From Rubripirellula sp. (lineage in GTDB: Bacteria; Planctomycetota; Planctomycetia; Pirellulales; Pirellulaceae): DNA of 64,000 bases. The notes beneath the pieces were generated by a model. It saw nothing but the letters and a program-made list of their open reading frames with translations, made no database searches and had not been told where the DNA came from. Positions 40,440 to 55,821 of the stretch are shown piece after piece. The DNA is taken from NCBI GenBank assembly GCA_965216875.1, contig OZ244207.1, forward strand, positions 3,488,001-3,552,000. Reading direction: 5' to 3'. Position 1 is the first letter of the stretch. Every line of letters starts with the position of its first letter. The position numbers were made by a program, and so were the translations under genes.

Positions 40440-40508
40440 CGAGATATTAAAGATCCTTCTCCCGTTTCCAGGCAAAGGGAGGTTGTCCTCTTGTGCTCCA
40501 CTTCTGTC

Positions 40509-40597
40509 GGGTAACGACCGCGATGACCGAGTCTCAGAATTGTGGTGTCCCAGTAAAAAGTCCCTACCCGCGACTTCGGTCCATCGCTTGGTTCTGC
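40509..40597 (-). repeat. attC
   Basis: GGGTAAC GACCGC GATGACCGAGTC...GACTTCGGTCCATC GCTTG GTTCTGC, 89 bp. Confidence 0.88.
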
Positions 40598-41166
40598 CTT
40601 CTTTTGCGGCTTGCCTCAAGCAACGGCAAGCATATGTCTTCCTCAAGCCAGAAACAATCACGTCGTGCTCGGTCATGCTTCCACCCGCGATCAATGGCAG
40701 CGTCGATGAACGCCTTCGCCAGATCCTCCGTGCAATCGTCGCGGGTGATGGTGCAGTAGGTGGCCAATAGTTGGCCCTTGGGATGCCCCACATTCTTGAT
40801 CTTCAAATGAAGTCCACCCTTTGCGTCCGGGTACCAAGAGAATTGATCGCCCCTGTAATCAAGGATGCGTGGGAATCCGTAAAAGCAATCAAGGACGCGT
40901 TCATCGGTGAGTCCCGTATCTTGATCATCGTTCCCGTGCGGATCCCAGCCGTGCTCCAACGCGACATCGATCAGACGCCGAACGATTGCGGGCGTTACGT
41001 CGCCGTCGTAGTCGCAGCGAGCAAACAGTGATGGTCCGTTGGGATTGTCATCGGCAACAACGGTCACGGTCCGCGTCCATGGACAGTCCATGTCGTAGTG
41101 GAAGCGCCAGCGGAACACTTGCTCGCGGACCGTAATGCGATTCGAGTTTCGTTTTGGAGAAGCCAT
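40564..41166 (-). CDS. Cassette gene: hypothetical protein with an internally duplicated domain
   Basis: VTPAIVRRLIDVALEHGWDP and CTEDLAKAFIDAAIDRGWKH repeats; reads into attC. Confidence 0.7.
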   Translation of the reverse strand: MASPKRNSNRITVREQVFRWRFHYDMDCPWTRTVTVVADDNPNGPSLFARCDYDGDVTPAIVRRLIDVALEHGWDPHGNDDQDTGLTDERVLDCFYGFPRILDYRGDQFSWYPDAKGGLHLKIKNVGHPKGQLLATYCTITRDDCTEDLAKAFIDAAIDRGWKHDRARRDCFWLEEDICLPLLEASRKRRQNQAMDRSRG

Positions 41167-41176
41167 CAACGCTTGG

Positions 41177-41734
41177 CTATTCGTTCGGCCCAAACAGGTC
41201 TGCAGATCGTATGATCCAACGGTCGCCCTCAAGGCGTGCAATGTAGCAATGCAAGCCAGATGCACACCAATCCGAGCACCGATCCCCAGCAATCAATTGA
41301 ACCGTTCGCTTATCAATCTGTACCATCGCATGAATGCGCGGATCAATCGAAGCCTTGGCAACAATCGCTGCGACGAGTTGTTTCTTGGTCAAATCGCCAA
41401 CCTCCGGAAACTCCTGTGTTTTGAGTTTCCGGTATGCGGCGGTCCGTTCGCTATCGCTCAGACCGACATGCGGACGCGTCATTCGTGCCCGAATACCCGC
41501 AATTGCTTCACGCAACGTTTTTGCAATCGCGGAGTATTCTTCGGGCGTCGCGGCCCCGAAGTCTATGTGCGCGAATGGCGATTCATCACCTCGGTTTTTG
41601 TCGGGCACACTTTCCAGCCAGAGCTGATGATGCACACGGAGTAACTTAGCGACGACCTCATGGGATTCGCCACGTGCGGCCATGCAAAGTGAGACGAAGA
41701 CGATGAGCAGAAGTGCGTATCTCAAGGAATTCAT
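41177..41734 (-). CDS. Cassette gene: secreted hypothetical protein
   Basis: Signal peptide MNSLRYALLL; ATG next to the core site. Confidence 0.7.
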   Translation of the reverse strand: MNSLRYALLLIVFVSLCMAARGESHEVVAKLLRVHHQLWLESVPDKNRGDESPFAHIDFGAATPEEYSAIAKTLREAIAGIRARMTRPHVGLSDSERTAAYRKLKTQEFPEVGDLTKKQLVAAIVAKASIDPRIHAMVQIDKRTVQLIAGDRCSDWCASGLHCYIARLEGDRWIIRSADLFGPNE

Positions 41735-41736
41735 AG

Positions 41737-41825
41737 CGATAACGGAGGTCGTAAGCGAGGACCGCCAATGTGGCTTCCAGATATAAACGCGACATGCGGC
41801 CCTTCGATTCACAACCTAGTTATGC
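41737..41825 (-). repeat. attC
   Basis: GATAAC...GTAAGCGAGGACCGC...GCGGCCCTTCGATTCAC...GTTATGC, 89 bp. Confidence 0.8.
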
Positions 41826-42293
41826 CAAGATCGCGTCTCGTATCCTGGCAAGCCACGGTGATGGCGACGAACCTGCATTCCCCATTTGTGCGATGCATCG
41901 AATACCTTGCGCTTCGCACTCCAATTCGCGAATGAGCCGAATCAGACCGCTTGATCCGTCGGCACCCGATACTGCAAACACGTAATACGCGTGTTCGATC
42001 GCCCAGCGGACATTATCCCTGTTCGATCTTACGAGTTGTCTCCAAGCGTGGGAAGAGAAATTCGAGCAACCCAAGATTTCGATGAATACGTGCGCTAGTT
42101 GTTGCGATTCCGTTTTGCGAGGAATTAGGTCGCCAACACGGATCATGATCTCGCAGTCGCGACCCGTGAACTCAGATTCAGGAACGGTCGAAATGGCGAC
42201 AAGCGTGTCCAACGACCTCAAGCGGCCGTACGTTATTCGATAGCCTATCTGCACGCTTCGTAACGTAGTCAATGAATGAGGATCTCGATTCAA
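41820..42293 (-). CDS. Cassette gene: hypothetical protein
   Basis: 157 aa; TAA stop inside the attC core. Confidence 0.6.
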   Translation of the reverse strand: MNRDPHSLTTLRSVQIGYRITYGRLRSLDTLVAISTVPESEFTGRDCEIMIRVGDLIPRKTESQQLAHVFIEILGCSNFSSHAWRQLVRSNRDNVRWAIEHAYYVFAVSGADGSSGLIRLIRELECEAQGIRCIAQMGNAGSSPSPWLARIRDAILA

Positions 42294-42311
42294 TCAAAGT
42301 GAGCATCCACT

Positions 42312-42418
42312 AGTTAACCGACATCTTCGTCACCGATCCCCCGGCGGCAGCGAACGCCTCAGAAACGAAAACCAAAAAACCTGCACTCTGCCACTCCGTG
42401 TGCATCGGCTGGCTATGG
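42312..42418 (-). repeat. attC (degenerate)
   Basis: CCACTCCGTGTGCATCGGCTGGCTATGG arm. Confidence 0.55.
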
Positions 42419-43105
42419 AAGCCCTGATTTGAGACGGAAGGTTCGTGTATCCCCAGATTGATTCGACTGCCATACCGTTTCCGAATCAATATCCATGCAA
42501 GTCAACCATCGTCCCTTGCACACGCCGGTATCAACGCAGATCGCGTGTCCGTTGGTAGCAGGAAGGCCTGAATCCTGTGACTTGTGACCGCAGATGACAA
42601 TCTTCCCGGAAACATGGCCCGGGAACCCGTTCCAGTAATTCCCCCAATACAACGATGAGTCCGGTTGGGCCGACATCGGCTGTGCATGCGACACAATCCC
42701 ATGAACGAAAATGTGGGTATCGGTCTCGAAGTAGGGCAACAGACGTTTGGAAAGAAACTGCCAATGCTCTGGAGTCACATCGTCAAGCGAGCCAATTCCA
42801 TCGGCATCATCTGTGTATGAAGCCAGTGTTTCGGCCCCCCCAAATTTGTACCATCGTTGCAATTCAGTAACTGACGTTCGTGCATTCAGCATCATCACTT
42901 CGTGGTTACCGCGCAAAGGTGTCAGTCGGCATCGTTGTGACTGATCGATCAACCATTGGATGACCCGCTCGGAATCCGGTCCACGATCAACGTAGTCACC
43001 CAACATCACCAGATGGTCATCAGACGAAACCTCAACAAATGCCACCAAATCAAGCAGCGATTGATAACATCCGTGAACATCTCCGATTGCCAGAATCCGT
43101 CCCAC
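42413..43105 (-). CDS. Cassette gene: metallophosphoesterase (PphA-like Ser/Thr phosphatase)
   Basis: GDVHG, LGDYVDRG, LRGNHE, FVHG, ICGH, VDTG. Confidence 0.92.
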   Translation of the reverse strand: MGRILAIGDVHGCYQSLLDLVAFVEVSSDDHLVMLGDYVDRGPDSERVIQWLIDQSQRCRLTPLRGNHEVMMLNARTSVTELQRWYKFGGAETLASYTDDADGIGSLDDVTPEHWQFLSKRLLPYFETDTHIFVHGIVSHAQPMSAQPDSSLYWGNYWNGFPGHVSGKIVICGHKSQDSGLPATNGHAICVDTGVCKGRWLTCMDIDSETVWQSNQSGDTRTFRLKSGLP

Positions 43106-43116
43106 TTCAATTCATT

Positions 43117-43188
43117 CCCTAACGGTAGCAGTCACCAATCTCAGCAAAACGCCCGGCTGCGCGCCCCTGGTGCACTTTCTCGTTATGT
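43117..43188 (-). repeat. attC (short, 72 bp)
   Basis: CCCTAAC..AGTCACCA...TGGTGCACT..GTTATGT. Confidence 0.8.
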
Positions 43189-43656
43189 GCTGCTTGGTAG
43201 CCTCCGCTCCGTCGCGCACAACTGCGTGTAGTCACCGAACGTTGGAATGTCGGTCCAATTCTCTGCAACGGATGCCACGGTCTCTTTTTCAATCGCTTTG
43301 CCCGCTCCTTCCTCCACCATCAGAATCTCACCATTGGTCGAGAATGAGAAGGTAACAGATTTCGCAATTCGCGAAGTACATTTTTTGTAAACACGATGTA
43401 TCGCCATTGACAGAAAAATTCGGTCATCCAGGACCTTAAAGTCGTAGTTCAAATACGGCCTTGATTCCTTGTCAAAAAAGTCAACGCTGAACCAACCCTG
43501 GGCAACACTCACAACATGGGTTGGGGAGTCAAGTCCGCCGATTACTGCTGAATAGGGAAGACCTTCTATATGGCGATCATTCGCCTCTTGCGTCGCCAGC
43601 GGCTTGATCGGTTGATTCCGTGCAAAGAACCATTTTTCGCTGTAGGCGAGATTCAT
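43183..43656 (-). CDS. Cassette gene: hypothetical protein (immunity-like)
   Basis: Aromatic-rich beta protein: KWF...A..RH..G.PY; NW..IPTFGDY. Confidence 0.7.
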   Translation of the reverse strand: MNLAYSEKWFFARNQPIKPLATQEANDRHIEGLPYSAVIGGLDSPTHVVSVAQGWFSVDFFDKESRPYLNYDFKVLDDRIFLSMAIHRVYKKCTSRIAKSVTFSFSTNGEILMVEEGAGKAIEKETVASVAENWTDIPTFGDYTQLCATERRLPSST

Positions 43657-43681
43657 ACAGGCAATCCCTCACTGCCACGCA

Positions 43682-43770
43682 CAGAACTCGCAAAATCACC
43701 GGGTCCGAGCGGAACGGCAACCACTGCCCGACGGACACGCAAGGACTCCGGTGGATATCTTGCTTGTGCC
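43682..43770 (-). repeat. attC
   Basis: GAAC..AATCACCGGGTCCGAGCGGAA.GGCAACCA..GACTCCGGTG; sister of the site at 49249. Confidence 0.75.
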
Positions 43771-43780
43771 ATCGTTGGTA

Positions 43781-44233
43781 CTAGTCATACGAAGCGCCGT
43801 AATCTCGATCGGGCGCGATTGCATCTAATAGCGGCACATCCGGTGGCAACGTTTGCGGGGCGCTCGGAAATGCGGTCTTGATCGCAGAAATCACCGCCCT
43901 CTCGGCGCGCGATTGCTTGTCGGAGCCGTCGAGACAAGAATGCACCGCGTTGACGAGGTGGTCAACGGTCATGTGCTCCCAAGGACATGAGTCCAGTGTC
44001 ACCGATTCGGGTATTTCAATGCCGAGGTCATCCTCGATCTGCATCATGATTTCGACAGCATTGAAGTATGTCGCGGTCTGGTCGCAGTTCGCCCTCATCG
44101 CAATTCCGATGTCGCGAAGAGACGCTTGGCACTCGGGACAAGTCGCCTCCAACCGAAGAAATGACCGCACAGGCACGGCGGTTGTTGCGCCACACGCGTC
44201 GCAACAGATATGGAGTGGGTCCTGATATCGCAT
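43781..44233 (-). CDS. Cassette gene: zinc ribbon plus acyl-carrier-like domain
   Basis: CDAC/CPEC; AVEIMMQIEDDLGIEIPE. Confidence 0.65.
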   Translation of the reverse strand: MRYQDPLHICCDACGATTAVPVRSFLRLEATCPECQASLRDIGIAMRANCDQTATYFNAVEIMMQIEDDLGIEIPESVTLDSCPWEHMTVDHLVNAVHSCLDGSDKQSRAERAVISAIKTAFPSAPQTLPPDVPLLDAIAPDRDYGASYD

Positions 44234-44242
44234 CAGTCTATG

Positions 44243-44409
44243 GTGTAACGTCCGAAATCACGGGGATCGCTCCGGAGACGACTCATTTGCAAGCGCGCCA
44301 TGGCGATCTCGCGCATTTCGACGAACATTGCGAATCACATGGCGGCTACGGGCACGGTGAATTCAAAACAGCCCCAAGTTCGCCGCTCATGTGCATTCGA
44401 TGGTTATCC
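44243..44409 (-). repeat. Two adjacent attC (truncated 44243-44320 plus intact 44320-44409)
   Basis: GAACATTGCGAATCACATGGCGG...CCGCTCATGTGCATTCGATGGTTATCC. Confidence 0.85.
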
Positions 44410-44435
44410 GCCGGGCCAAAGCATTTCGGCCGCAT

Positions 44436-44798
44436 TCAGATCCACTGGATGTTGTCAGGGAGTGTATCGTTGTTTGCAATTGAGATGAACGCAGCAAGTG
44501 CGTCGTCATAGGCAATGCACTTCTGTAGATAAAATGCGTCCAATTGTCCATTTTCAAGTCGGATGAGCGTTGTTTCATCATCCGGTGCATTCGGGTTGAA
44601 TGGTTCGGCACCATCCGAACAGCGAAAAACGGTTGCGTGCTCTCCGTTGTAAAGGAAACCCGCGATTGCTTCGTCTTCATGGTGTAGCCAATACGCGGCA
44701 TCCCCAGTCGTTGCAAGCAGTTCCTCAACGATCGCCCCCAGCTTAGAGATGTCGGGTACGGGATATGCCCCAGACTCACATACGATCTGATGTGCCAT
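44436..44798 (-). CDS. Cassette gene: Imm1-like immunity protein
   Basis: LENGQLD.F....CI..DDALAAF......LPDNIQW pattern. Confidence 0.6.
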   Translation of the reverse strand: MAHQIVCESGAYPVPDISKLGAIVEELLATTGDAAYWLHHEDEAIAGFLYNGEHATVFRCSDGAEPFNPNAPDDETTLIRLENGQLDAFYLQKCIAYDDALAAFISIANNDTLPDNIQWI

Positions 44799-45004
44799 GA
44801 GTATCTTGCGAGAGGTTTCTCATTTGGAGAGCGGCAGACACCAAGGGGCACGGAGAGTCGACTATCCACTGCGAGATCGCCGCAAGCCGTGCTCCCGAGC
44901 ATGTCAACATTCCCCGTCCTTTTGATGCACTGGAGAACGCCAGTCAACAAGAACCAGCTGCCCCGCAAATTGTAGCAAATGATCAGCGAGATATAGGCAA
45001 TCGT

Positions 45005-45337
45005 TCAAACCGAAGCACGATGTCTGCGACGGGCGCGACGGATGAGGTCCCCGAACATCAGAATATTTGGCGTGACAAAGTAAGTAATGAATGGCCAAAT
45101 TGGCCCACTGAATCCTAAGAACTCAGTTTCGTAAACGATTGGACCGTCGGTGAAGAACTCGGATTCACGCCGTAGTTCAAGCTGCAATGAGACGTACGCG
45201 AAACCGATCGCTGAAGCAGGAACCGCAATCAGGATGCCGTTGAGAATCACGATTGGCCGAATCCACCGTCCACGACGGAGGGAATCAGCGGAAGTTGTCG
45301 TGGCTGGTTCGTACGGATTAGGGTTTGCAGCTGGCAA
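45005..45337 (-). CDS. Cassette gene: membrane protein
   Basis: N-terminal NPYEP motif, 2 TM segments; start uncertain. Confidence 0.55.
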   Translation of the reverse strand: MPAANPNPYEPATTTSADSLRRGRWIRPIVILNGILIAVPASAIGFAYVSLQLELRRESEFFTDGPIVYETEFLGFSGPIWPFITYFVTPNILMFGDLIRRARRRHRASV

Positions 45338-45369
45338 GTTCGTCAGTCGTTGCAGCAAGTAGTTTTGTC

Positions 45370-45459
45370 GGATAACGCCACGGATCAGCGGGGACCGGGG
45401 ATTGAGGATCCATCGGTGAAAACGGACCACCGGCCCAACGTTGCATCCGATCGTCGCAG
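45370..45459 (-). repeat. attC
   Basis: GGATAAC GCCACG GATCAGCG...CGTTGCATC CGATC; sister of the site at 52857. Confidence 0.8.
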
Positions 45460-45472
45460 GCATGATGACGTG

Positions 45473-45901
45473 TCAAAGTGCGTCCCGAAGCAGCATGAGT
45501 TTCTTGTCGATGTTCTCGTCGAACCAAGCTCCGTCATCGGCATGAATTGTACCAAAGTGAGTCGCACTCTCTCCGGTCGTGTCGAATAGCCAACCACCGG
45601 CATAGAGCAGTTGGTGTAGTTCAACGCCCTCCGACATGAGTGTGACTGCTTCGGCCTGTGCCGGCATGGTCGCTGTATAAGGAGCCCATCTTGCGTTGCG
45701 GCAAGTCTCGATGAAGCGTTTGACATCCCGGCGTTTGTCGAGTGTCAGTTCATCAATTTGTATCGTGTCGATGGTGTCCAACTCCGCGAGAAACCTCGGT
45801 TGCGAAGTTGAGCCGATGGCAGATTTAGACATTGTACTCGTCGAGATGCAACCACCAACCAATGGCACGAAGCAGACAAGTATGAATCGAAGACGTGACA
45901 T
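45473..45901 (-). CDS. Cassette gene: lipoprotein
   Basis: Lipobox LVGGC; GAGGGA RBS. Confidence 0.7.
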   Translation of the reverse strand: MSRLRFILVCFVPLVGGCISTSTMSKSAIGSTSQPRFLAELDTIDTIQIDELTLDKRRDVKRFIETCRNARWAPYTATMPAQAEAVTLMSEGVELHQLLYAGGWLFDTTGESATHFGTIHADDGAWFDENIDKKLMLLRDAL

Positions 45902-45911
45902 TCCCTCGTCC

Positions 45912-46002
45912 ATCCAACGCGACGGATCACGCGGTCGCCGCGAGCGATCCTCAACTTCAAAAACCACGACTCGGCGACTCGTCGTGCATCCGATGATTAT
46001 TC
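45912..46002 (-). repeat. attC
   Basis: AAC..GGATCACG.GGTCGCCG...CGGCGACT..CGTGCATCC..ATTAT. Confidence 0.82.
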
Positions 46003-46419
46003 TCCCTCGTCAGCAAAAAAGTGTGCCATTTGCGATTCGTCCCATTCGTGGGTTGTTGATGCGTCGGCGGGTGGCGGGAAGCCAGTGCGACAGCAACCCA
46101 CGCTGTCAGCGAAATTGTAAACCGCATGGGGGTAGGAATTGATAAAGAGCGCAGCCTTCATTCCATCACCGGACCAAATGATATGCATCTCTGAAGGCTT
46201 GTCTCGATCGGCGACAGATTGAACGTTGTAAATGTGAAGTGCATCAACGATGGGATTGTCTACCTTCTCCCTATCGAGAGCGTAGAAGTACCCGGTCTCG
46301 CCATCGTCTTCGAAAACGGCTTGATACCGTCCGATTGAAGAATCCGATTGCACGACGCTCTCGACGCCGACAGAGAGCGTTTCATTGGTTACGACACTGG
46401 CGGCGAGTCGAGGTGGCAT
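45997..46419 (-). CDS. Cassette gene: DUF2251-like protein
   Basis: VFEDDGETGYFYALD, IVDALHIYNV, WSGDG.KA.L.IN.YPHA, CRTGFP. Confidence 0.8.
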   Translation of the reverse strand: MPPRLAASVVTNETLSVGVESVVQSDSSIGRYQAVFEDDGETGYFYALDREKVDNPIVDALHIYNVQSVADRDKPSEMHIIWSGDGMKAALFINSYPHAVYNFADSVGCCRTGFPPPADASTTHEWDESQMAHFFADEGE

Positions 46420-46489
46420 ATCATTTATCCGCGAAGGTTGAGTGTGTGATGAAGGCGACGGGACATTGGCTAAATCCGGTAGAAACCAT

Positions 46490-46563
46490 GCGGAACGGGC
46501 GAATGACCTGCAAGCAGAGCAATAACCCTCACTCCCGTCCTCGTGTGGAATTCATTGTTCTGT
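46490..46563 (-). repeat. attC (degenerate)
   Basis: GAACGGGCGAATGAC...GTGGAATTCATTGTTCTG. Confidence 0.55.
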
Positions 46564-46937
46564 GCGGTTTGTTCGTTTGGTTCCTGGAGCGAAACAAAGC
46601 TGCGATCCGTGAAACCAATGACGGTCTCCGAGGCCACAATGAGCGAAACGCCAGGCGGTCGGTCTTGCGATCACAGAAGTCTTCGAATCTACCAATCTTA
46701 TTGATCACGTCCATGAGCTCGAAAATTTCAGTGTGCGTTCGGCCAAAGCAACACGTCAAAGAATGTGGCTGCGTGGCGAGCATCCGCGTATAGAGCAACG
46801 GAGGCAAATACGGTTGCCACCAGATCACATCCCCGGTGGTCGTGAACGAACCTTGCCACAAGGCGATCCGCCACATCGTTGTCGGATCGGGAATCCGGTT
46901 CGATCAATTCGTAGATTCGTTCGATCAGACAAGTCAT
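46529..46937 (-). pseudogene. Probable frameshifted cassette gene
   Basis: Overlapping ORFs 46728-46937 and 46529-46876 fill one cassette slot. Confidence 0.45.
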
Positions 46938-46967
46938 CGGTCAAACAAAAGGCAAGGGATTCCTAAC

Positions 46968-47151
46968 CCACAACGGTACAGTCCGCGAGTTTCCACTTTC
47001 CATTGTAGAACACCCGGCTATCGCGACTTGGGTGCACCGCGTGGTTCGCGGATTAACAATTCGCTCGTGCAGCGGATAGGAAACGATCCAGCGATCATCC
47101 ATTTCAAAATCACGCACAAGACGGACTTCGCATGCATCGCATTGGTTATCC
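46968..47151 (-). repeat. Two tandem attC with no gene between
   Basis: CGCGACTTGGGTGCACCGCGTGGTTCG (ends ~47049) and CTTCGCATGCATCGCATTGGTTATCC (ends 47151). Confidence 0.7.
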
Positions 47152-47793
47152 CGCGTTCGCAAAAAGTTCGTTCACAACGGAGAGCTGTTTGGGTTGAGGA
47201 GCGAGCTGACGATTCCCATCAAAAAAGGGTTCCAATATCCAATGCTCAGGTCCAATGTATCCAATTTGAGACCAAGCCTCAAAAAAACTATTCAATGGCA
47301 TGTTGAACGTGAACGAATCCGCGTCGTGCGATAGGTAATTCACCGAGGCAGTCTCTAAGTCCAGCCCAAGATAGTCACCATTGCGAAGCGCCATGAATGG
47401 AAGGGTGTTAAGCCAAAACGCCTGATCTTGCCGAAATTCATCATCATTGAGCCATGATGATACCGCGAAGTTTCGGCATTGCTTCAAGTTACCTGTTAGT
47501 AAATCGACATCAATCACGACACCGCCATGAATAAAGTCTCCGAGTCCGATTTGGCCCGCAACTTCAACCAATGGTTCTGGCAGTTCCCATCCGTAGTTGA
47601 AGGAAAGTGCGGCAGTCTTTGTGAGAAGTTCTTTTAAGCCCGTCGGAATTTCAAAACCTAGATCAGTTTCAACTGAGGCTAGGCGTTCCATGGTAGCAGC
47701 AGGGGATTGGCGGAGTGCGAGAGAGTCAAACTCGCCGGGAAGTTCGCCAAGTTTGCCGTGGAATGCTTCGATGTTGTCGGGGATTGGTTTCAT
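47146..47793 (-). CDS. Cassette gene: SMI1/KNR4 (SUKH) family protein
   Basis: PAAT.E.L..VE..LGFEIP..LKE; F....NGDYLGLD; V.YLSHD. Confidence 0.85.
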   Translation of the reverse strand: MKPIPDNIEAFHGKLGELPGEFDSLALRQSPAATMERLASVETDLGFEIPTGLKELLTKTAALSFNYGWELPEPLVEVAGQIGLGDFIHGGVVIDVDLLTGNLKQCRNFAVSSWLNDDEFRQDQAFWLNTLPFMALRNGDYLGLDLETASVNYLSHDADSFTFNMPLNSFFEAWSQIGYIGPEHWILEPFFDGNRQLAPQPKQLSVVNELFANAG

Positions 47794-47798
47794 GAGCG

Positions 47799-47887
47799 GG
47801 ATAACGGCGGCGTTGACCGGGCGACGCCATGGTGGTGTCCATTTCAATCCGTCTCATGCATCGCTCCGGTCCAACACATGGTTCCCT
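47799..47887 (-). repeat. attC
   Basis: GGATAAC..GTTGACCGGGCGA...TCGCTCCGGTCCAAC..GTTCCCT, 89 bp. Confidence 0.88.
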
Positions 47888-48082
47888 GCTACATCGACCG
47901 TGCCAGCATCGCTCAGATAGTAAATCGGGTGACAAGCTTGCGGTGTAATCCGTAGATGAGCTCATGAAGCACAAGGGGCGATTACATAGCGCAAAGATCC
48001 TCAGCACACAGTCAACAAGGAAACGCCAATAACTCGGGGAACGGAGGACATCACGGGGGACGATGAGTTTGGCCTTCATTCT

Positions 48083-48126
48083 AGCAAACGCCGGGAGGCC
48101 TCCTCCCGCGCATGTCATGGTTCAGC
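48083..48126 (-). repeat. Internally deleted mini-attC
   Basis: AAACGCCGGGAGGCCTCCTCCCGCGCATGTCATGGTTCAG, about 44 bp. Confidence 0.55.
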
Positions 48127-48792
48127 CTCGGTGTTAACGATTGCATTCAGTTTGCCTTGATACTCTGCGGCCAGAGCATCATCCCCCTTTTTGTTGGCAA
48201 TCAGGATGCCCGCCTCGTATGCGCTGGGATCGTTGGGAAATCCGGTGAGTAGTTTCTGCACGTCCGACTCTGCGTCCGCAATTCTGTCCAGTTTCACCAT
48301 CGCCTCCACGCGAAATCGCAGATTCTGTGCATGAACAGAAGTGTCCGCACAAGCGTCATTTGCCGCATCGAGATACGGGATCGCGTCCTGGTACTTTTTC
48401 AAGAGCACAGCATCTCGGCCCAATGCATGGTTCGCACCACAGTGTTTTGGATCAACCGCTAAGGCTTCACGATAGTGGACGTCCGCCTGTTCCAATTCTC
48501 GCTGTTTCCAGTAGCAATCGCCCAAAGAAGCGTAATTGGTCGCCGTTGGAGATCGATCAACCAACTGCTGAAACAGTTTTACTGCTTCGTCATACTGCTC
48601 GGCGTCGAGACGCTCCTCAGCCAATTCAAGTAGTTGGCCCGCGCTAAGTTCAGCGACAACATCGAGAGACGCAGTTTCTCCCGGTGCAACGCCGTTGGCA
48701 GTACGACTTGAATCGCCACTACAGCCACAGCAGAGGGATAGGGTGGCGATCAAACAGACTTCGGATATGCGTGTGCGTCGAGCAGGATGCAT
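48115..48792 (-). CDS. Cassette gene: TPR lipoprotein
   Basis: Lipobox CCGC; multiple TPR repeats. Confidence 0.85.
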   Translation of the reverse strand: MHPARRTRISEVCLIATLSLCCGCSGDSSRTANGVAPGETASLDVVAELSAGQLLELAEERLDAEQYDEAVKLFQQLVDRSPTATNYASLGDCYWKQRELEQADVHYREALAVDPKHCGANHALGRDAVLLKKYQDAIPYLDAANDACADTSVHAQNLRFRVEAMVKLDRIADAESDVQKLLTGFPNDPSAYEAGILIANKKGDDALAAEYQGKLNAIVNTEAEP

Positions 48793-48827
48793 GATGCTGT
48801 CCTAAAAGTGTTGACAAAGTTTCTTTG

Positions 48828-48918
48828 GCCGAACGACCCGAGTCACCGGGCCCCGTAAGGTGAGCATCCATTCGTGAAAACGATCCCACGGGCCTCCGTG
48901 TACACGCGATGGTTATGC
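48828..48918 (-). repeat. attC
   Basis: GCCGAAC..GTCACCGGGCCCCGT..CATCCATT..ACGGGCCTCCGTG..GTTATGC; sister of the site at 51036. Confidence 0.85.
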
Positions 48919-48926
48919 CTCAGTCT

Positions 48927-49184
48927 TCATCCTTGCGTTGTCAGGTAACAGTGCGACAAATTCGCCCCAGTTCTTACACAACACGTTCGCGTGATCGCTA
49001 ACGTAGGGAAACGCAGATGCCCATATCGCGCCCGATTCAACCGTTTCGCTTCGGTGAGAAACACACCACAGGAGTCGATGATCGTTTTAATGGCGGCCAA
49101 ACGCTCTCCAGCAATGATGAGAGCGTCTATCTCATCTCGCTGCGATTGCATGAGCGCATCAAATTCAGGTGTCGTGCTTGACAT
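48927..49184 (-). CDS. Cassette gene: small hypothetical protein (possibly truncated)
   Basis: EIDALIIAGERLAAIKTI....GV.LTEAK, resembling ribosomal L7/L12 C-terminal-like helices. Confidence 0.5.
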   Translation of the reverse strand: MSSTTPEFDALMQSQRDEIDALIIAGERLAAIKTIIDSCGVFLTEAKRLNRARYGHLRFPTLAITRTCCVRTGANLSHCYLTTQG

Positions 49185-49248
49185 AGCGTGATCGAGTTAT
49201 AACCCATTCGAGAATCTCGAAAGGCGAGTTAATAGGATCGTAGTAGTC

Positions 49249-49442
49249 GCAGAACGGCAATGTTTACCGGGTCCGAGCGGAAAGGCAACCATTACCCAAC
49301 AGCAACTCGAGACTCCGGTACGTCACATGGTCATACCGCCATTCAGTGGTGGGATAACCTTCCGCATCAGCGGGCGGCGGGAGTCGAGTCACCGTTTATT
49401 CAAACGTCTCCACTGCCATTCCGTTGCATGCGATGGTCCGCC
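49249..49442 (-). repeat. Two tandem attC (49249-49336 and 49352-49442)
   Basis: Both have AAC...GT(T/C) ends and L boxes; only about 15 bp apart. Confidence 0.8.
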
Positions 49443-49850
49443 GCGATTTCTGCGTCTAGGGTTGCATTCGGTTCAACACCGGCTGACCGAAGCCCTGACT
49501 TCCATGCAGCGTGCACCAAGTAGAGCATTGCGATTTGCGGGGCCCAGCAACAGGCAGTCCCAGGCACAACAGCGAACGCTGACCTTGGAGAGTCGAAAAT
49601 AGCCGAAACTGAATACGCGATGCATATCATGCCGGCCAAAACAACAACAGCTATGCGGTATCGGATTAGACGCGTGCGGCCGTAACGAGAAAGCCCGAAA
49701 GCAATCGCAGGTCCGAAAAAATAGGTGAATGCAAGTGTTATTAAAGTCCCGGGCAATCCAAGCATTCGGGCAAACGCGAGAACGCATGCCAGAACCGTAG
49801 TGGCAACGATCAGGTGCCAAATACGGAATTGGGTCGGTTCAAGGCGTACG
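49400..49850 (-). CDS. Cassette gene: membrane protein
   Basis: Frame is open upstream of the listed ATG (QFRIWHLIVATTVLAC...); 4 TM segments; start uncertain. Confidence 0.6.
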
Positions 49851-49870
49851 TTCAGTTGGCTACTCCAGTC

Positions 49871-49962
49871 GGCGAACGACCGCGATAACCGAGTCGCGGG
49901 AGTTGATTGTCCATTGCGAAGTCGCCCGACTACCGCGACTTCGGTTCATCGCTTGGTTCGCC
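49871..49962 (-). repeat. attC
   Basis: GGCGAAC..GATAACCGAGTCGCGG...CCGCGACTTCGGTTCATC..GTTCGCC, 92 bp. Confidence 0.92.
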
Positions 49963-50496
49963 GCGATTTTCAAAATAGGTGCGAGTGACGTAGTCCGATT
50001 CTCGATAGTCAACATGGCACTCGATGCACGATCCGATTTTACCAGACGCGAATACCCGCCTCGATGTGCCATCGACAATCGAGTATTCCCAGTCGCCATG
50101 CTCGCGATCGTATCCAGTCGGCATTTTTCGCATCACGGTATAAATTTCAATCTTTGGTTTGTCCTTGTCAGGTAGCTTTGCTTTTACGATTAGCGAGTCG
50201 ACAGGATATACGCCACTTCCACTGATCATTGTTTTCTTTGCAGTTTCGTTGACGTAGACGTTGCAATATGCGGTCCGGATGAAACCTTCGTGCAAATTGT
50301 GAGGAAGTTCGATTGGCGGGCGGCAAAGAGCGGCCGTTGAATCAAACATTGGATGCGGCTCTTCGGTGACAAGGTGCAACGATTTCAGATTCGTAATGAC
50401 TGAAACGAGTGCAGAATCATGGGTGCTGTTCTCTGCGGCCAATGCATGGATCGCTGCGATGAAAAGCAAACCAGTAAAGATGAGTAGGTATCTCAT
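49930..50496 (-). CDS. Cassette gene: cytochrome P460-family c-type cytochrome
   Basis: Signal peptide; YPVDSLIVK, VMRK...GDWEY, C-terminal CIECH. Confidence 0.78.
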   Translation of the reverse strand: MRYLLIFTGLLFIAAIHALAAENSTHDSALVSVITNLKSLHLVTEEPHPMFDSTAALCRPPIELPHNLHEGFIRTAYCNVYVNETAKKTMISGSGVYPVDSLIVKAKLPDKDKPKIEIYTVMRKMPTGYDREHGDWEYSIVDGTSRRVFASGKIGSCIECHVDYRESDYVTRTYFENRGEPSDEPKSR

Positions 50497-50512
50497 TGGA
50501 TCTTTCCCCGTC

Positions 50513-50602
50513 GGCGAACGACTGGGATAACCGGGCCGCCGAGGTTGATGCTCCATTTGAAAACGCGATGTCGGCGGCTACGTGTGCATGCCTTGGTTAT
50601 CT
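50513..50602 (-). repeat. attC
   Basis: GGCGAAC...GCCGCCGA...TCGGCGGC...GTTATCT, 90 bp. Confidence 0.85.
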
Positions 50603-50655
50603 GGCCTCAGTGCGATCGAAACGAACTGAAGCCGACGTCCAAGCTGGGCAACCAA

Positions 50656-50943
50656 TTACTCGGTTGTTGACGTTGGGCCGTGCGATCCGCCATCAACGAA
50701 CATGTGTGTTGATTGCCAATAGTATCGACAGTCCTTGTCTTCGTTCAAACTGTTCAACCTCATGACTTCGTTTTGAGCCTCCCTAGCATCGAAAACGATT
50801 TCTTTGACCTTTACGTTTGCGGGACCCGGTGCAGGCAATGTCTCGCCATCAATTGTGTATTCGTCAACGTGGCCTTCATTTCCCCAGTTGTCGACGCGAA
50901 TGACCGCATAGCCCTGTTTGTAGGTTGGTTGTTGTTCTGACAT
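50656..50943 (-). CDS. Cassette gene: hypothetical protein
   Basis: YAVIRVD...VKEIV.....A..EV.RLN.LN.DK...YYWQ.T. Confidence 0.65.
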   Translation of the reverse strand: MSEQQPTYKQGYAVIRVDNWGNEGHVDEYTIDGETLPAPGPANVKVKEIVFDAREAQNEVMRLNSLNEDKDCRYYWQSTHMFVDGGSHGPTSTTE

Positions 50944-51035
50944 AAGAGCAAGGCGATTTGCGGCAGCGCGGCAAGGGAATCGTAGGCCGCCAAATCGCAT
51001 CTGCGTTGCGTAAACGGAGAATTGAAACCTGGGCC

Positions 51036-51126
51036 AAATAGCGTCACGCGTCACCGGGGCCCGTGAGTTGAGCATCCATTGGAGAAAACCAACCAACGGG
51101 CCTCCGCGTGCACGCGATGGTTACCC
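51036..51126 (-). repeat. attC
   Basis: CGCGTCACCGGGGCCCGT...ACGGGCCTCCGCGTGCACGCG..GTTACCC. Confidence 0.82.
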
Positions 51127-51585
51127 CTTCGGTTTTTTGCGGTGCACGCCAATTTTCTCATGTATTTGATTGGGGTCTTCACCAGTCTGAATGTAATCAT
51201 AAATCAACTTGTCTGGATCGCCGGCGTAACTCCATGTGCGACCGCTGGTCAGACGGACGTAGTCCAAAGGTACGTCTGAGTCTTGAATTTCAGCAATGGT
51301 GACCTCCCAGTCGACGATGATAAACGATTGCAGCTGCTCGAATGTCCAAGCGTAGTGTTCGGGAACGGCGAGACGATCATATTCGTCACGCAGATCGTGC
51401 CATCCAGTTGGCCATTCACCCGAAGTGCGTATGTGATCAATGATGAATATTGCAGTCCAGTCTGAAGCGTATGCTTCACGCGGGTTAGGAAGCACTTGCT
51501 TGACGAACGACAACGCTTTTGCAATTCCGAATGCGGCAATCGCACATGTAGTCAACGCCACGACAGTAATCAAGACGGGTCGCAT
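51121..51585 (-). CDS. Cassette gene: membrane-anchored hypothetical protein
   Basis: N-terminal TM; GEWPTGWHDL; stop inside the attC core. Confidence 0.72.
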   Translation of the reverse strand: MRPVLITVVALTTCAIAAFGIAKALSFVKQVLPNPREAYASDWTAIFIIDHIRTSGEWPTGWHDLRDEYDRLAVPEHYAWTFEQLQSFIIVDWEVTIAEIQDSDVPLDYVRLTSGRTWSYAGDPDKLIYDYIQTGEDPNQIHEKIGVHRKKPKG

Positions 51586-51613
51586 GGAATGTCAGCTCGG
51601 GTGCTCCTAGTTG

Positions 51614-51703
51614 GGGTAACGGCCGCCATCACCGAGCCCGGCCAATGTGGTTTCGATTTGTAATCGCCCCATGCCTTGCTCCGGTGCATGACATGGTTAT
51701 CCG
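51614..51703 (-). repeat. attC
   Basis: GGGTAAC..CATCACCG...CCGGTGCATG..GTTATCC, 90 bp. Confidence 0.88.
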
Positions 51704-51705
51704 CG

Positions 51706-52269
51706 TCATGATTCGAGTATGCGTTCAAGTTCTTCTCTGCGGTCAAGCAACGGAAGAACGCGTTTGCGAAAGTAACGCAAAGTGCGATCATCCAGCTTAA
51801 ACGATCCGCGCAGCATATTACATAACGTCTCGGAATGCTCGTTAATGTACGAAAGCGCGGCCTGGCCATGATCTTTCCGTTGCTCACGATGAAGCCGGAT
51901 TGCGACGTTCAACACGCCTGGACAACATGTGTAGGATCGAGGGAATGCCAATCCACACTTCTCGCACCAATTTACGCCGGCGGGTAAGTATGCGACGCAG
52001 AATACGCCGAGCGCCTCATCACTCGGAATGCTCGGAACAATGTCGTGGAATTCGTGACCAACGCGATCGGAACTGTGGCGAAACAATTCCGTCCCGCATT
52101 GGGAACAACGACCGCCGTTAGAAGTGTACTCGGCAGATTGGAACGATCCGCCACAGACCGAACAGATCGAGCAGACAGGGTAAAGCGCTTCGTACTCGCG
52201 ACGCTCGTCGAGTGTGGCTGTCCCGTCCAAGAGTCTGGTCGCGAGTTGAGTGGCCCGTTCAGTCGGCAT
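51706..52269 (-). CDS. Cassette gene: Cys-rich zinc-finger protein
   Basis: CSVC, CSQC, CEKC, CCP motifs. Confidence 0.68.
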   Translation of the reverse strand: MPTERATQLATRLLDGTATLDERREYEALYPVCSICSVCGGSFQSAEYTSNGGRCSQCGTELFRHSSDRVGHEFHDIVPSIPSDEALGVFCVAYLPAGVNWCEKCGLAFPRSYTCCPGVLNVAIRLHREQRKDHGQAALSYINEHSETLCNMLRGSFKLDDRTLRYFRKRVLPLLDRREELERILES

Positions 52270-52280
52270 CTATCTTGTTC

Positions 52281-52370
52281 GCATAACGTCACAAATCACA
52301 CGGCGGCGACGAAAATCGTGATTTCAAAACAGACTCGGCTTCGCCGCTCGTGTGCATTCGATGGTTATCC
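52281..52370 (-). repeat. attC
   Basis: Minus strand: GGATAAC-5-AATGCACAC...GTGTGATT-6-GTTATGC, 90 bp. Confidence 0.92.
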
Positions 52371-52760
52371 GTCTTTGTCCGAGTTGATGCACGTCTGTTC
52401 CTGCGGTCGACCGAAGCGCACACCAAAAACCACAGTAACAACGCCGAGAGGAATAGCCAATCCGAATAATGGTGAGAGGGCTGGGATCGAAACCCCAAGC
52501 CCAAGCGCGGCACAAAGATGTGCACTAGGACTGCGAAACAATTGTACCGAGCCGATGATGGTAGCTGCACTCAGTAGGACGCCGGCGAGATGTACGAATA
52601 GTCCAATTGCGTGGGCTCCTTGAGTCGAGACAATTTCGATGTTGCGGAGGGCGACAGCGAAGCCAGCCGTGTTTCGAGAGTAAACGACCCAGAAGCCGCC
52701 AAGATGAGCCAACAGACCAAGCACGGCAGTCATCAAAATCGCAACGGAAATAATCCTCAT
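52365..52760 (-). CDS. Cassette gene: membrane protein
   Basis: 3-4 TM segments; stop inside the attC core. Confidence 0.65.
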   Translation of the reverse strand: MRIISVAILMTAVLGLLAHLGGFWVVYSRNTAGFAVALRNIEIVSTQGAHAIGLFVHLAGVLLSAATIIGSVQLFRSPSAHLCAALGLGVSIPALSPLFGLAIPLGVVTVVFGVRFGRPQEQTCINSDKDG

Positions 52761-52856
52761 GACGATCAGGCGGTAAGTGGAATCGAGCGTACTATTCTGA
52801 CCATGTCACGAACGGAGCTTGGAAAACGATGAGCCGTTCAATACTCACGCGCGAAC

Positions 52857-52946
52857 GGATAACGACTAGGATCAGCGGTGACCGGGAGTTCAGCATCCAT
52901 TCGTGAAAGCTGGCCACCGGTCCTCAGGTGCATCCGAGGGTTATCC
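52857..52946 (-). repeat. attC
   Basis: GGATAAC..GGATCA..GACCGG...CCGGTC..TGCATCC..GTTATCC, 90 bp. Confidence 0.88.
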
Positions 52947-53540
52947 AATATGCCCAACGCACTCCTCGAACAAATTGCAATACTCAGGGATCAGCGAGAC
53001 AGTTCGATCGTTCCATTCTTCAGCAAAGCTCGCCGTGAAAGTATGCCAAAGACTGTCGTCTTCAAACTTTTTGTAATACGCGGGACGCCAGTACTCAACG
53101 GGCGATGCCTCGACGAATAGTGATTGCGTCACTGCAAAACGGAAAAAGTCAAATCGAAAGGAGGCAGTACTGCGAGCCGCAACGCTCGGAGTGTAAAAAT
53201 CGTATCGAATGACGCCCAGGATCTCGGGTTCCGAATCATGAAGATGACGTTGTTGCTCGATTGCACTCTTCAAATCGGGGTTTGCATCCAGCACTTGTGG
53301 CGGGCGGATGGACAACTTCGTCGTTGCGAAGTGACCGTCGCCATGCCACTGTAGTTTTTTGCCGAACCCCAATGCGAATCTCTCGACTTCGGAAACGACC
53401 TGGGAGTCAATCGGGTATTCCAACCTGTCCCATATTCGACGCACGCAAGCAACCGCGAAAAGGCGTAGCGGGTTATCGGGAACTGTCCCATGTACCGCAT
53501 CGAGCAGTTGTCCAAGCGGAGAAGACGAAATGGGAAGCAT
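52941..53540 (-). CDS. Cassette gene: hypothetical protein (LRLFAVAC.RR.W type)
   Basis: 199 aa; stop inside the attC core. Confidence 0.68.
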   Translation of the reverse strand: MLPISSSPLGQLLDAVHGTVPDNPLRLFAVACVRRIWDRLEYPIDSQVVSEVERFALGFGKKLQWHGDGHFATTKLSIRPPQVLDANPDLKSAIEQQRHLHDSEPEILGVIRYDFYTPSVAARSTASFRFDFFRFAVTQSLFVEASPVEYWRPAYYKKFEDDSLWHTFTASFAEEWNDRTVSLIPEYCNLFEECVGHIG

Positions 53541-53596
53541 GTGAGTACTCTTGTTTACCGCAAACCCAGATTTCAGCGACGAGCACGACTCTCATC

Positions 53597-53688
53597 GGAT
53601 AACGGCCCGGCATCACGGGGCACGAAGAGTTGACTATCCATTGGGAATAACGACGCAAGCCGTGCTCCCGTGCATGTCATTGTTCTGC
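53597..53688 (-). repeat. attC (head-proximal)
   Basis: GGATAAC..GCATCACGGGGCACG...CGTGCTCCCGTGCATG..GTTCTGC, 92 bp. Confidence 0.92.
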
Positions 53689-54168
53689 TCGTTCTTCTGA
53701 CCGGATGAGCTTCGCAAGTCGGTCAATCGTAGATCGAGACGAAAATGTGGCCAGGAAATCGTCTAAGAGCGTCGGGGCAACGTCCGCGTCAATTGTAGTG
53801 TAGTCGCCATCCGAAATTTGAATCAATTTCTGGGAGGCGGGCAGCTCGACAATGCGATCCTTCAGTTCGATCGTTGCAGAGGATTCGTAGTCACTGCCGG
53901 ACGAGGTGACAGTGAAAAGAGACGTCAGTTCCCGTCGTACAGAAAGTCGTTCTATGACAACAAAGTCAACGGTGTCCAAGGTTGGGTCATGCTTGTGCCG
54001 CCTAATCCCGGTGTGAATCATTGCAATCCCGTTTGCATCGCTTGTGGATCGCGTAGTGATGTCTCGCGGGTGGAACGGTTGATACGGATTGTTTGCGATG
54101 TAGATCGCAGCAACTGCGGTCAACATTAGCAGTGAAGCAATCGAGAACCGGAACCGATGCAATTTCAT
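53677..54168 (-). CDS. First cassette gene: membrane-anchored hypothetical protein
   Basis: RFRFSIASLLMLT leader; ATG 5 nt from the boundary core. Confidence 0.72.
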   Translation of the reverse strand: MKLHRFRFSIASLLMLTAVAAIYIANNPYQPFHPRDITTRSTSDANGIAMIHTGIRRHKHDPTLDTVDFVVIERLSVRRELTSLFTVTSSGSDYESSATIELKDRIVELPASQKLIQISDGDYTTIDADVAPTLLDDFLATFSSRSTIDRLAKLIRSEERAEQ

Positions 54169-54173
54169 TGCGT

Positions 54174-54343
54174 AGCAGAATTTATCTATTAGCTGTTGAA
54201 CGGGTGAGAATACGGCGTGCTGGCTGTTCTCACTGGGTGGACCTTCGGTACGGTCGGTGACACGCGCCTTGATCCTCGTATTCTCACTTGTCGCTCCAGT
54301 ATTCTCACCGGTTAGGTGGCAACCACTCTGGGGGCATTCTCAC
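54174..54343 (-). promoter_or_regulatory. Putative attI region with five (GT)ATTCTCAC motifs
   Basis: Boundary core AGCAGAAT at 54174-54181; motif at 54204 (inverted), 54226, 54278, 54299 and 54334. Confidence 0.55.
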
Positions 54344-54364
54344 CGTCGGCCTTTGGGTTGTCAA
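54336..54364 (-). promoter_or_regulatory. Putative cassette promoter Pc
   Basis: TTGACA-17 nt-GAGAAT on the minus strand, pointing into the array. Confidence 0.6.
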
Positions 54365-54544
54365 ATTTTGAATCGCTTCCTGTGAATAGGGGTGTCGCGG
54401 TATCGGAGTCAATCACCGCGAATGGGGCATGTTCTTATGCCGCTTTTTGAGCGAGAGGGACGCAAGGATCGCGACTCAAAATGGGCGAAGATTTGGTTTG
54501 GCAAGCTCGCGAGATGCCACAACAAGGAAGAGTGTCCTGGGGAA

Positions 54545-55510
54545 TGATTGGCCACGAAAACGCAAGAAGACACAAAAGGAAGAACGTCGCGATTCGTGTG
54601 CTGGGCTTCTTGTGCTTTTTTGTGTTTCTTGTGGCTAACTCATTGGGCAAAAAAGAGAAACCACGAATTGAACGAATGACACGAATGGGGTTAGCGGGAG
54701 GACGAGGCTCCTGCAGAGATTCCTGGGGAATGGGTGGCCACGAAAAACGCAAGAAGACACAAAAGGGAAGGGTGGGGCCCGGCCGCATAGGCGTTCGCGG
54801 ATCACTGAGGTTCGACCACCTTCTGGCGAAGGTAGCTACGGATGCGCGAGTGTATTTAGGGCTCAGGGATTGTGCCGGATCGGTGTCGCTTTCGCTCCTT
54901 GATGCCGGCCTACAACTACGGATAGGTGAGTAAGAATAGGGCCCGCGGCTAGCGCCGTCGGCTCAGGGGTTGGGTGCCGAGATTCTTGTGGGAAGACTGG
55001 CCACGAGATACACGAGGAGACACAGGTATTCTTGCGATGGGCTTTTTGTGCTTTTTCGTGTTTCTTGTGGCTAACTCATTGGGCAAAAAAGAGAAACCAC
55101 GAATCGAACGAATGACACGAATGGGGTTAGCGGGAGAGCGAGGCTCCTGTAGAGAGTCCTGGGGATTGGGTGGCCACGAAAAACACGAGAAGACACAAAA
55201 GGGAAGGGTGGGGCCCGGCCGCTTATGCGTTCGCGGCTCACTGGGATTCGACCACCTTCTGGCGAAGGTAGCTACGGGTGCGCGAGGAGAAGCAAGGCCC
55301 GCGGCTAGCGCCGTCGGCTCAGGAGGGTGGGTAAAGAGAGGATAGGGTCCGGCCGCTTACGCGTTCGCGGCTCACTGGGATTCGACCACCTTCTGGCGAA
55401 GGTAGCTACGGATGCGCGAGGAAATGTAGGGCCCGCGGCTAGCGCCGTCGGCTCAGGAGCGTGGGCAGAGAGGGGGTAGGGCCCGCGGCTAGCGCCTTCG
55501 GCTCAGGTGT
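54545..55510. repeat. Repeat mosaic: ~250 bp block duplicated at ~435 bp offset, CCACGAA..CACGAA-type repeats, REP families B and D
   Basis: 54603-54850 matches 55038-55285; CACCTTCTGGCGAAGGTAGCTACG x3; GGCCCGCGGCTAGCGCC.TCGGCTCAG x4. Confidence 0.85.
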
Positions 55511-55537
55511 GTGGGTGATGCGCTTGGTCGTGCCGGC

Positions 55538-55657
55538 CTACGCCTTGCTCTCGGATTTCTTGACGATGAAGACGACGATCGCCGCGATCGCCACTGGTAC
55601 TGCGACGAATGAAATCGCCACCGCGGCGATGATCACCAATTCTAGCGGTCCAGGCAT
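55538..55657 (-). CDS. Small membrane protein (39 aa), not in the ORF track
   Basis: MPGPLELVIIAAVAISFVAVPVAIAAIVVFIVKKSESKA; GGAG RBS upstream. Confidence 0.65.
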   Translation of the reverse strand: MPGPLELVIIAAVAISFVAVPVAIAAIVVFIVKKSESKA

Positions 55658-55820: not shown

Positions 55821-55821
55821 G

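Follow-up and report, generated by a model that had tools for sequence, protein, structure and literature searches.

Cassette arrays with two or more attC sites and no intact intI nearby are known as CALINs (Cury et al. 2016, PMC4889954). Their origin was left open in the IntegronFinder paper (PMC4889954), in whose account, as far as it goes, loss of intI is one of four routes. In the same study pseudogenes of intI were reported near 15 of 279 CALINs, and attI was not searchable in most integrons. It has been proposed there and in PMC9668308 that CALINs are used in trans as cassette donors. One published CALIN, located inside a 40-kb cryptic prophage, lacks an integrase and has a separate attI copy (Qi 2023, PMC9892861). 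In Xanthomonas, with integrons whose intI is deleted or inactivated, the gene was lost by a large deletion and the array then remained stable, and the integron platform is described at one locus (ilvD; bioRxiv 2025.06.18.660453).

The array under study, designated array A, lies in a window of 64,000 nucleotides from Rubripirellula sp. (contig OZ244207.1, positions 3,488,001 to 3,552,000). Like a sedentary chromosomal integron it shows AAC/GTT crossovers, attC hairpins in which R boxes, L boxes and unpaired bases are recognizable, one ORF per cassette, and an attI with a candidate Pc at the array head, and a TIGR02249 IntI is encoded in the genome; unlike such an integron it has no adjoining intI. 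Since only a stump of intI stands beside its attC sites, array A is a CALIN. All three CALINs found in this genome carry an attI and a Pc-like promoter, however, and sister arrays appear to have recombined recently at or next to an orphan attI, which sets them apart from the CALINs as portrayed in PMC4889954. As in the case of Qi 2023 a second array lacks an integrase and is headed by a separate attI copy. In contrast to that account, which in its accessible description mentions no cassette exchange, four chromosomal arrays lie megabases apart here and the pattern recurs in several genera. The state of array A resembles that of the Xanthomonas integrons after loss of intI, whose additional CALINs, in the text of that preprint, are not described as attI-headed, unlike those found here. 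The arrays also differ from the Planctomycetes attC class as it is described by Ghaly et al. 2021 (PMC8352920): the cores mostly read GTT, then A or C, then a pyrimidine-rich stretch, they pair over 8 nt, and the unpaired L-box base is a C on the presumed bottom strand.

We consider it likely that this chromosomal array sits on a paralogue of the intact integron's platform and that the remaining IntI works in trans on several attI sites. The whole platform (attI, Pc, intI and 3' repeats) would have been copied to several places, and three of these four copies would then have lost intI by deletion, with Pc and attI staying in place. The remaining IntI would act in trans, releasing cassettes when two attC sites recombine on the folded bottom strand (attC x attC). 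The resulting circles would be inserted at the G^TT of any intact attI, after which each gene would be flanked by cores complementary over 8 nt. The one IntI may still serve arrays B and D, and probably C as well, and array A would have been filled in the same way and now be largely frozen and decaying. The DNA itself contains the cores, the attC structure, the four heads, the intI stump and identical cassettes with exact ends; beyond these we infer the order of events, the activity of the recombinase and of Pc, and the inactivity of array A.

The genome contains four attI-headed arrays (A, B, C and D) and one intact intI, located at genome positions 1815045-1816535, 1.73 Mb from array A. Only one IntI scored above the TIGR02249 cut-off, and its R-H-R-H-Y residues are present. 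All 75 covariance-model matches at E<0.003 fell inside the four arrays, each of which starts at its head copy; as the genome scan scored 150 of 1765 first-look candidates, headless diverged arrays may be missed. Over 186 nt the four heads share 88-93% identity, and heads C and D have one junction in common.

The attI simple site of array A was found at 54179..54212 on the minus strand, with the crossover between 54181 and 54180. This crossover reads A^TT, whereas the other three copies have G^TT; the homologue of cassette 1 in the relative G116 begins at the equivalent of 54180 and is preceded by G. The simple site has an inverted arm made up of a 9-nt motif, of which four more copies lie on the plus strand (54225..54343). 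By analogy with DR1/DR2 of attI1, these are candidate accessory integrase-binding repeats. The motif also adjoins intI in three relatives (G057, G113 and G100), and one repeat overlaps the -10 box of the Pc-like promoter. This putative promoter (TTGACA-17-GAGAAT; 54336..54364, minus strand), recognized by consensus match only (10 of 12 positions), is directed into the array and has a counterpart at the same site of the intact integron. Codons 1-34 of intI persist as a stump at 54437..54538 on the plus strand (76% identity with the intact IntI). Deletions have removed about 60 nt upstream of intI and roughly 1.44 kb of the gene itself, and codon 34 is fused at a microhomology of 9/10 nt to the repeats found 3' of intI. 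The tract of short palindromic repeats (54529..55560) is 84-94% like the one 3' of the intact intI; a tract of this kind is found behind heads C and D as well (71-76%). Overall, the head of array A (223 nt) is 91% like that of the intact integron, its attI and the one next to the intact intI agree to 93% over 186 nt, and the first cassette abuts this attI paralogue, not another genomic site. Regarding selection, head A and the stump did not differ significantly (13/186 versus 14/140 differences, p=0.42). The window's head as DNA query gave no match in 40 relatives, and the relatives were searched each with their own or a congener's head.

Array A comprises about 25 attC-like sites between single minus-strand ORFs (37136..53688, minus strand). 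Counted from 37136 rightward, 20 sites were found at E<1e-5, 15 of which had trained the model, and 5 were weak or partly deleted. All attC sites are given here on the plus strand, the presumed recombining bottom strand, an assignment based on gene direction and on the unpaired C and T of the 3' arm. The attC of cassette 1 lies at 53597..53688. The covariance model placed those of cassettes 2, 3, 4 and 6 at 52857..52946, 52281..52370, 51614..51702 and 50513..50602, and a further site at 48828..48918. At cassette 5 (51036..51126) the crossover triplet is mutated, reading GCT on the gene strand versus GTT in the homologue of relative G331. The ORF of cassette 7 (attC at 49871..49962) has a weak Cytochrome_P460 match. 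Two adjoining attC sites at 49249..49442 have mutated R'' triplets and crossovers only 103 nt apart, the ORF being lost. Farther along are the attC sites after a TPR-protein cassette (48115-48792; attC at 48036..48126) and at the close of a 237-nt unit (47799..47887). Of two partly deleted sites at 46961..47151, the right one closes an SMI1/KNR4 cassette with a 10-nt core pair (47145/47796).

The hallmarks of attC, i.e. AAC...GTT cores, L boxes, unpaired bases and a covarying stem, are present in array A. With a structure hand-drawn from these very sequences, 84.5% of cells were paired versus 65.3% after shuffling and 31-41% after sliding, and both sides change in 16 of 23 pairs. Brute-force folding of every AAC...GTT span was too unspecific and was replaced by the covariance model. 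The canonical core GTTRRRY is not matched, in that GTT is kept and positions 4-7 are rarely RRRY; this holds for the intact integron B as well. Such cores are a lineage trait and no mark against use by IntI. No functional theme of the cassettes was established, with Pfam naming 7 of 31 ORFs between 33133 and 54168. PADLOC gave 1 weak match on 30 proteins of the array region, and an Rfam scan of window positions 33000-58000 a single chance-level match.

Complementary cores are a textbook mark of integron cassettes and ordinary in themselves. They had been noticed in an earlier sequence-only reading, and all ten cores quoted there lie exactly where it placed them. The pairs it called 'one-mismatch' (cassettes 48115, 43183 and 51706) each depart from full pairing at one of the first 8 nt. 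At core positions 4-8 its 8 quoted pairs match in 36 of 40 cases versus 22.4 after shuffling (exact p = 6/40320); these pairs were hand-picked, and the valid test is that on unselected covariance-model sites. The proposal that complementarity within cassettes exceeds that of shuffled pairings held in this test too, with 2.93 of 4 positions matching in array A versus 1.96 (n=14 cassettes, p=5e-5). For all four arrays the values were 3.47 versus 1.89 (n=68, p<1e-5), with 68 of 76 units included and 8 outside 250-1100 nt dropped, 6 of them from array A. Core positions 4-8 match in 81-91% of units versus 39-61% expected. Pairing indeed often extends beyond 7 bp, as had been suggested (position 9: 37% versus 20%; position 10: 37% versus 26%), and positions 11-15 match at chance level. 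The extent of 47145..54181 given by that reading was too short: the real span is 37136 to 54181, with the head at 54179-54540. It had also missed the attI head, the deletion of intI, the three further arrays and the distant integrase. Its view that cassettes were mobilized one by one at G^TT gains support from homologues in the attC arrays of other genera. Cassettes 51040-51620 and 53601-54180 have homologues in G331 (84% alike) and G116 (70% alike), respectively; the likeness begins and stops at G^TT crossovers, and the neighbours are different. Core complementarity proves past mobility only, and the evidence from array A points to present inactivity.

Cassette B02 of the intact integron and cassette D02 of array D, whose head lacks intI, are identical over 580/580 nt at a distance of 1.58 Mb. 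Their likeness stops at both G^TT crossovers, their neighbours differ, and heads B and D differ by 12%. In G068, cassette 4 of the intI array recurs as the first cassette behind a head without intI (490/490 nt identical; heads 94% alike), and perfect 8-nt cores were present in 23/23 cassettes examined of this orphan array. In G133 the cassette next to an intI-less head has an identical copy deeper in its array (598/598 nt), with intI more than 3 Mb away, and G057 contains a two-cassette block 99.4% alike between an intI array and an intI-less one. Identical cassettes in first or second position at intI-less heads suggest that orphan attI sites are used in trans. At the level of sequence comparison these cases show apparently recent recombination of orphan attI docks in three genomes and two IntI clades only 38% alike. 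The new element here is this evidence that integrase-less attI sites may still recombine. A visiting integrase or separate uptake are other possible sources of identical cassettes. Both G075 and G120 have 4 paralogous intI platforms among the loci fetched (84-96% alike), the earlier stage expected if platforms are copied. Two of seven relatives tested (G100 and G063) have a single head. G012 gave one weak head match with no attC beside it and no intI match, and one head of G113 (L068) has no attC within 1.5 kb. Heads inside an array of G133 were at one time regarded as attI cassettes docked by IntI, a reading dropped in favour of tandem docks on a mobile element.

Array A, with its mutated crossover, degraded cores, non-attC deletions and no shared cassette, would fit a view in which every integrase-less array is a dead remnant, a CALIN formed by intI loss (a recognized origin according to PMC4889954), and shared cassettes predate the deletion or result from homologous recombination or segmental duplication. 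This is unlikely, because the shared cassettes are 100% identical though the heads differ by 12% (B/D) or 6% (G068), because the likeness ends at G^TT crossovers with different neighbours, and because the cores of the G068 orphan array are perfect in 23 of 23 cases. Slightly less probable still is a spread of orphan Pc-attI heads by mobile elements or by IntI itself, never via an intI-bearing copy. Three related elements of G133 with an HTH_36 ORF do carry attI heads and cassettes without intI, a serine-recombinase-like ORF was seen beside one copy, and the junction common to heads C and D could mean that an already intI-less head was copied. However, the stump and 3' repeats kept by head A argue for its derivation from a complete platform, array A is not flanked by genes of such elements, and the G133 block has just two short weak matches in this genome.

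That the array never had a platform to itself, having been seeded at a secondary (attG) site or separated from the main integron through a rearrangement, appears highly improbable. Both routes have been published (bioRxiv 2022.09.11.507474; PMC4889954, as described there), array A is situated where synteny with G001 and G002 breaks off, and these two genomes have no attC match in the 48 kb beside the orthologous flanking genes. Yet array A opens with its 223-nt head (91% like the intact one), behind which come the intI stump and 3' repeats, and the intact integron retains its own head. Contradicted by head and stump, such an origin could hold only for the distal part of array A.

Beyond a shared IntI acting on paralogous platforms, we see an about even chance that integrons of this bacterial family are distributed, with one integrase serving several Pc-attI docks that lie about the chromosome and on integrase-less mobile elements, and that many CALINs are live acceptors. 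Extra docks would then multiply promoter-proximal slots, so that simultaneous expression of more cassettes would be possible, and arrays now classed as inert CALINs would accept cassettes via an attI nobody had looked for. CALINs are usually treated as remnants or donors, whereas all those found in this genome have their own attI and Pc-like promoter. An attI is thereby defined for a lineage whose literature, in its portions on these sites, describes attC only. Our searches, which may miss such cases, found no description of a single integrase acting on more than one attI site. The genome's own four attI variants, including the one whose crossover is mutated, provide a ready-made test of integration in trans.

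Array A itself looks largely frozen and decaying, judging by its A^TT crossover, its few perfect cores and the non-attC deletions in a sister strain. Among the first 8 cassettes, perfect cores were found in 3/8 in array A versus 8/8 in B and 8/8 in D (Fisher p=0.0013). No cassette is common to array A and arrays B, C or D, and there is thus no direct sign that its cassettes were ever supplied in trans and not by the adjoining intI while that gene was still complete. Parts of array A without cover in run X7 were left out of the interpretation; runs X5, X6 and X8 consisted of short pieces, with no differing letters in those listed, and were excluded as independent support. The sister-strain contig joins 38962 to 46590 at a 5-nt microhomology, part of array A being missing, and 48288 to 48336 at a 3-nt microhomology. 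These breakpoints are located outside attC.

Integrons and attC sites are already known from Planctomycetes (PMC4889954, PMC8352920, PMC3108266), and the units in the window are integron cassettes. PVC-type protein families encoded in the window point to a probable planctomycete host. IntI is described as excising cassettes by attC x attC and inserting them by attC x attI recombination on the folded bottom strand (PMC8352920, PMC4889954), hence complementary cores are expected around each gene. The sequence-only reading had claimed such complementarity as the footprint of circular-cassette integration at G^TT. Its ten quoted cores are all present in place, the three pairs reported with one mismatch were confirmed, and of the 40 core positions in its eight hand-picked pairs 36 match, compared to 22.4 after shuffling (exact p = 6/40320). 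Since these pairs were hand-picked, a hairpin alignment and model-called sites were used in addition. The alignment took in 15 intergenic hairpins of the window plus one of the intact integron, 16 in total, with a hand-drawn structure. Covariation was strong, with 84.5% paired cells versus 65.3% after shuffling and 31-41% when slid, the structure being derived from the same sequences. In the window, the covariance model gave 28 matches: 25 on the plus strand at 37136-53688, two reverse-strand echoes and one weak match outside.

For the pairing test on model-called sites 68 of 76 units (250-1100 nt) were retained. Cores paired better within than between cassettes, with p=5e-5 for the window array (n=14) and p<1e-5 for all arrays pooled (n=68). 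Pairing spans 8 nt and declines at positions 9-10, in agreement with the claimed extension past 7 bp. When units of the window array were circularised and folded in silico, the re-circularised attC was better than the in-array hybrid in 6 of 13 cases, worse in 2 and equal in 5 (p=0.039). In array B, that of the intact integron, re-circularised sites folded better in 33 of 35 units. Site-specific mobilisation is further supported by window-cassette homologues that sit in other genera's attC arrays and whose similarity is bounded by G^TT at both ends (cassette 5, 84% in G331; cassette 1, 70% in G116). The observation of complementary cores is confirmed and its interpretation supported.

The window itself encodes no integrase. 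The single IntI of the genome above the TIGR02249 cut-off, with catalytic residues present, is encoded at genome positions 1815045-1816535, 1.73 Mb distant from the window array. It comprises 497 aa (L001 1144-2637): about 120 extra N-terminal residues precede the part matching TIGR02249, and there is a tail of 60 residues. Many IntI hits in the family likewise have long open frames. Window positions 54178-54400 share 91% identity with the DNA upstream of the intact intI, and this head (attI plus Pc-like promoter) recurs twice more, at 1147836 and 237361 of the genome. The four heads, named A (window), B (intact integron), C and D (integrase-less arrays), share 88-93% identity across the 186 nt that separate the crossover from the far end of a TTGACA-17-GAGAAT promoter match directed towards the cassettes. 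In the genome scan, which scored 150 of 1765 first-look candidates, all 75 model matches at E<0.003 fell within four arrays, each starting at one of these heads. Every head carries an inverted pair and four further copies of a 9-nt motif, of which 12 of 18 exact genomic copies lie within heads; by analogy to attI1 these are read as candidate integrase-binding sites. At window 54335-54343 the -10 box overlaps the final motif copy, and one may speculate that integrase bound there might damp cassette transcription. Head A runs into intI codons 1-34 (76% identical) and then jumps via a microhomology of 9 of 10 nt to a repeat tract found 3' of the intact intI. Heads C and D are devoid of intI and have a common junction.

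CALINs (attC arrays without nearby intI), the deletion of intI and use in trans as donors have already been published, as has a single CALIN with its own attI (PMC9892861). A set of chromosomal attI docks under a single integrase was not described in the papers that our literature search brought up, but the search also overlooked the latter case. This locus contributes sequence evidence for recent recombination at orphan docks. Cassettes B02 and D02 are identical (580/580 nt) despite a 12% difference between heads B and D; similarity stops at both crossovers and the neighbours differ. Within array B, B03 and B23 are likewise identical (457/457 nt; genome 1813181/1801428), and a second ORF pair with a shared N-terminus lies at its distal end (1794013-1794447/1791179-1791613).

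Of the 121 genomes in the family sample, 72 encode an IntI above the cut-off. Seven relatives, picked for IntI and mostly complete assemblies, were each searched with a head of their own or of a congener. Head places numbered 5 in G057 and G113, 3 in G141, 3 in G133 (later more), 2 in G068 and 1 each in G100 and G063. The extra heads mostly had attC on their cassette side and lacked intI within the 3-18 kb examined; exceptions were a G057 head with an internally deleted intI and a G113 head without nearby attC. G068 has a single IntI, just 38% like that of the Rubripirellula genome; at its integrase-less head the first cassette is identical to cassette 4 of the array with intI (490/490 nt), and cores were perfect in all 23 cassettes examined at this head. 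The first cassette of an integrase-less head in G133 recurs deeper in the same array (598/598 nt). In G057 a block of two cassettes is 99.4% alike between the intI array and an intI-less one, but this genome has a second full IntI. G075 and G120 carry four paralogous platforms with intI each, among the loci fetched.

The locus also provides a live-to-frozen array series inside a single genome. Array A has A^TT at its attI crossover, heads B, C and D have G^TT, and in G116 a G precedes the homologue of cassette 1. Of the first 8 cassettes in A, 3 have perfect 8-nt cores; in B the initial 26 cassettes all have them, in D the initial 8 and in C the initial 2 (A versus B+D, p=0.0013). Several attC sites of array A are mutated or truncated. 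Among sister-strain contigs from a single metagenome (run X7, about 97-99% alike), one joins 38962 to 46590 and 48288 to 48336 at short microhomologies and not at attC sites, and a second contig covers the same intI stump. No cassettes common to A and B, C or D were found, and conservation of head A did not exceed that of the stump (p=0.42). Because of this crossover, the imperfect cores, damaged attC sites, non-attC deletions, lack of a shared cassette and a head no better kept than the stump, the most plausible reading is that array A is frozen and decaying within the four-array set.

From the observed sites, heads, stump and identical cassettes with exact ends it is inferred that entire platforms were duplicated, that surplus intI copies were deleted, and that the remaining IntI serves intact docks in trans. 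In G075, a second IntI clade occurs in two copies >99% identical with 3-kb flanking repeats (L087 4857-10585, L088 5021-10951), which is a very recent platform duplication. G133 harbors three elements related to one another, which combine tandem attI heads with short runs of cassettes and an HTH_36 ORF and lack intI (L093 3698-15986, L094 4835-11233, L137 8120-20000, L139 3331-4594); a Mrr_cat nuclease is found in one cassette run and a serine-recombinase-like ORF adjoins one copy. They look like mobile elements borrowing the host integrase and offer one possible route for platform movement.

Short palindromic repeat tracts with many genomic copies occupy window 54529-55560, 55770-55821 and 57210-57420; we take them to resemble REP-type repeats. 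A piece of the head-associated tract inside array D (genome 243250-243436) may mark a lost second head. In the distal window array, a repeat present in dozens of genomic copies, about 100-190 nt long, lies at 37215-37420. Array A is located at a synteny break relative to G002: window 55822-58070, from a thioredoxin-like gene through the genes up to ilvC, is inverted in comparison to L131, and in G002 the thioredoxin-like gene adjoins an aldehyde dehydrogenase gene. In G057, a 1.77-kb block, 97-99% alike in three separate arrays (L049 3238-5030, L095 9936-11726, L096 7388-9153), is possibly an IS targeting cassette arrays.
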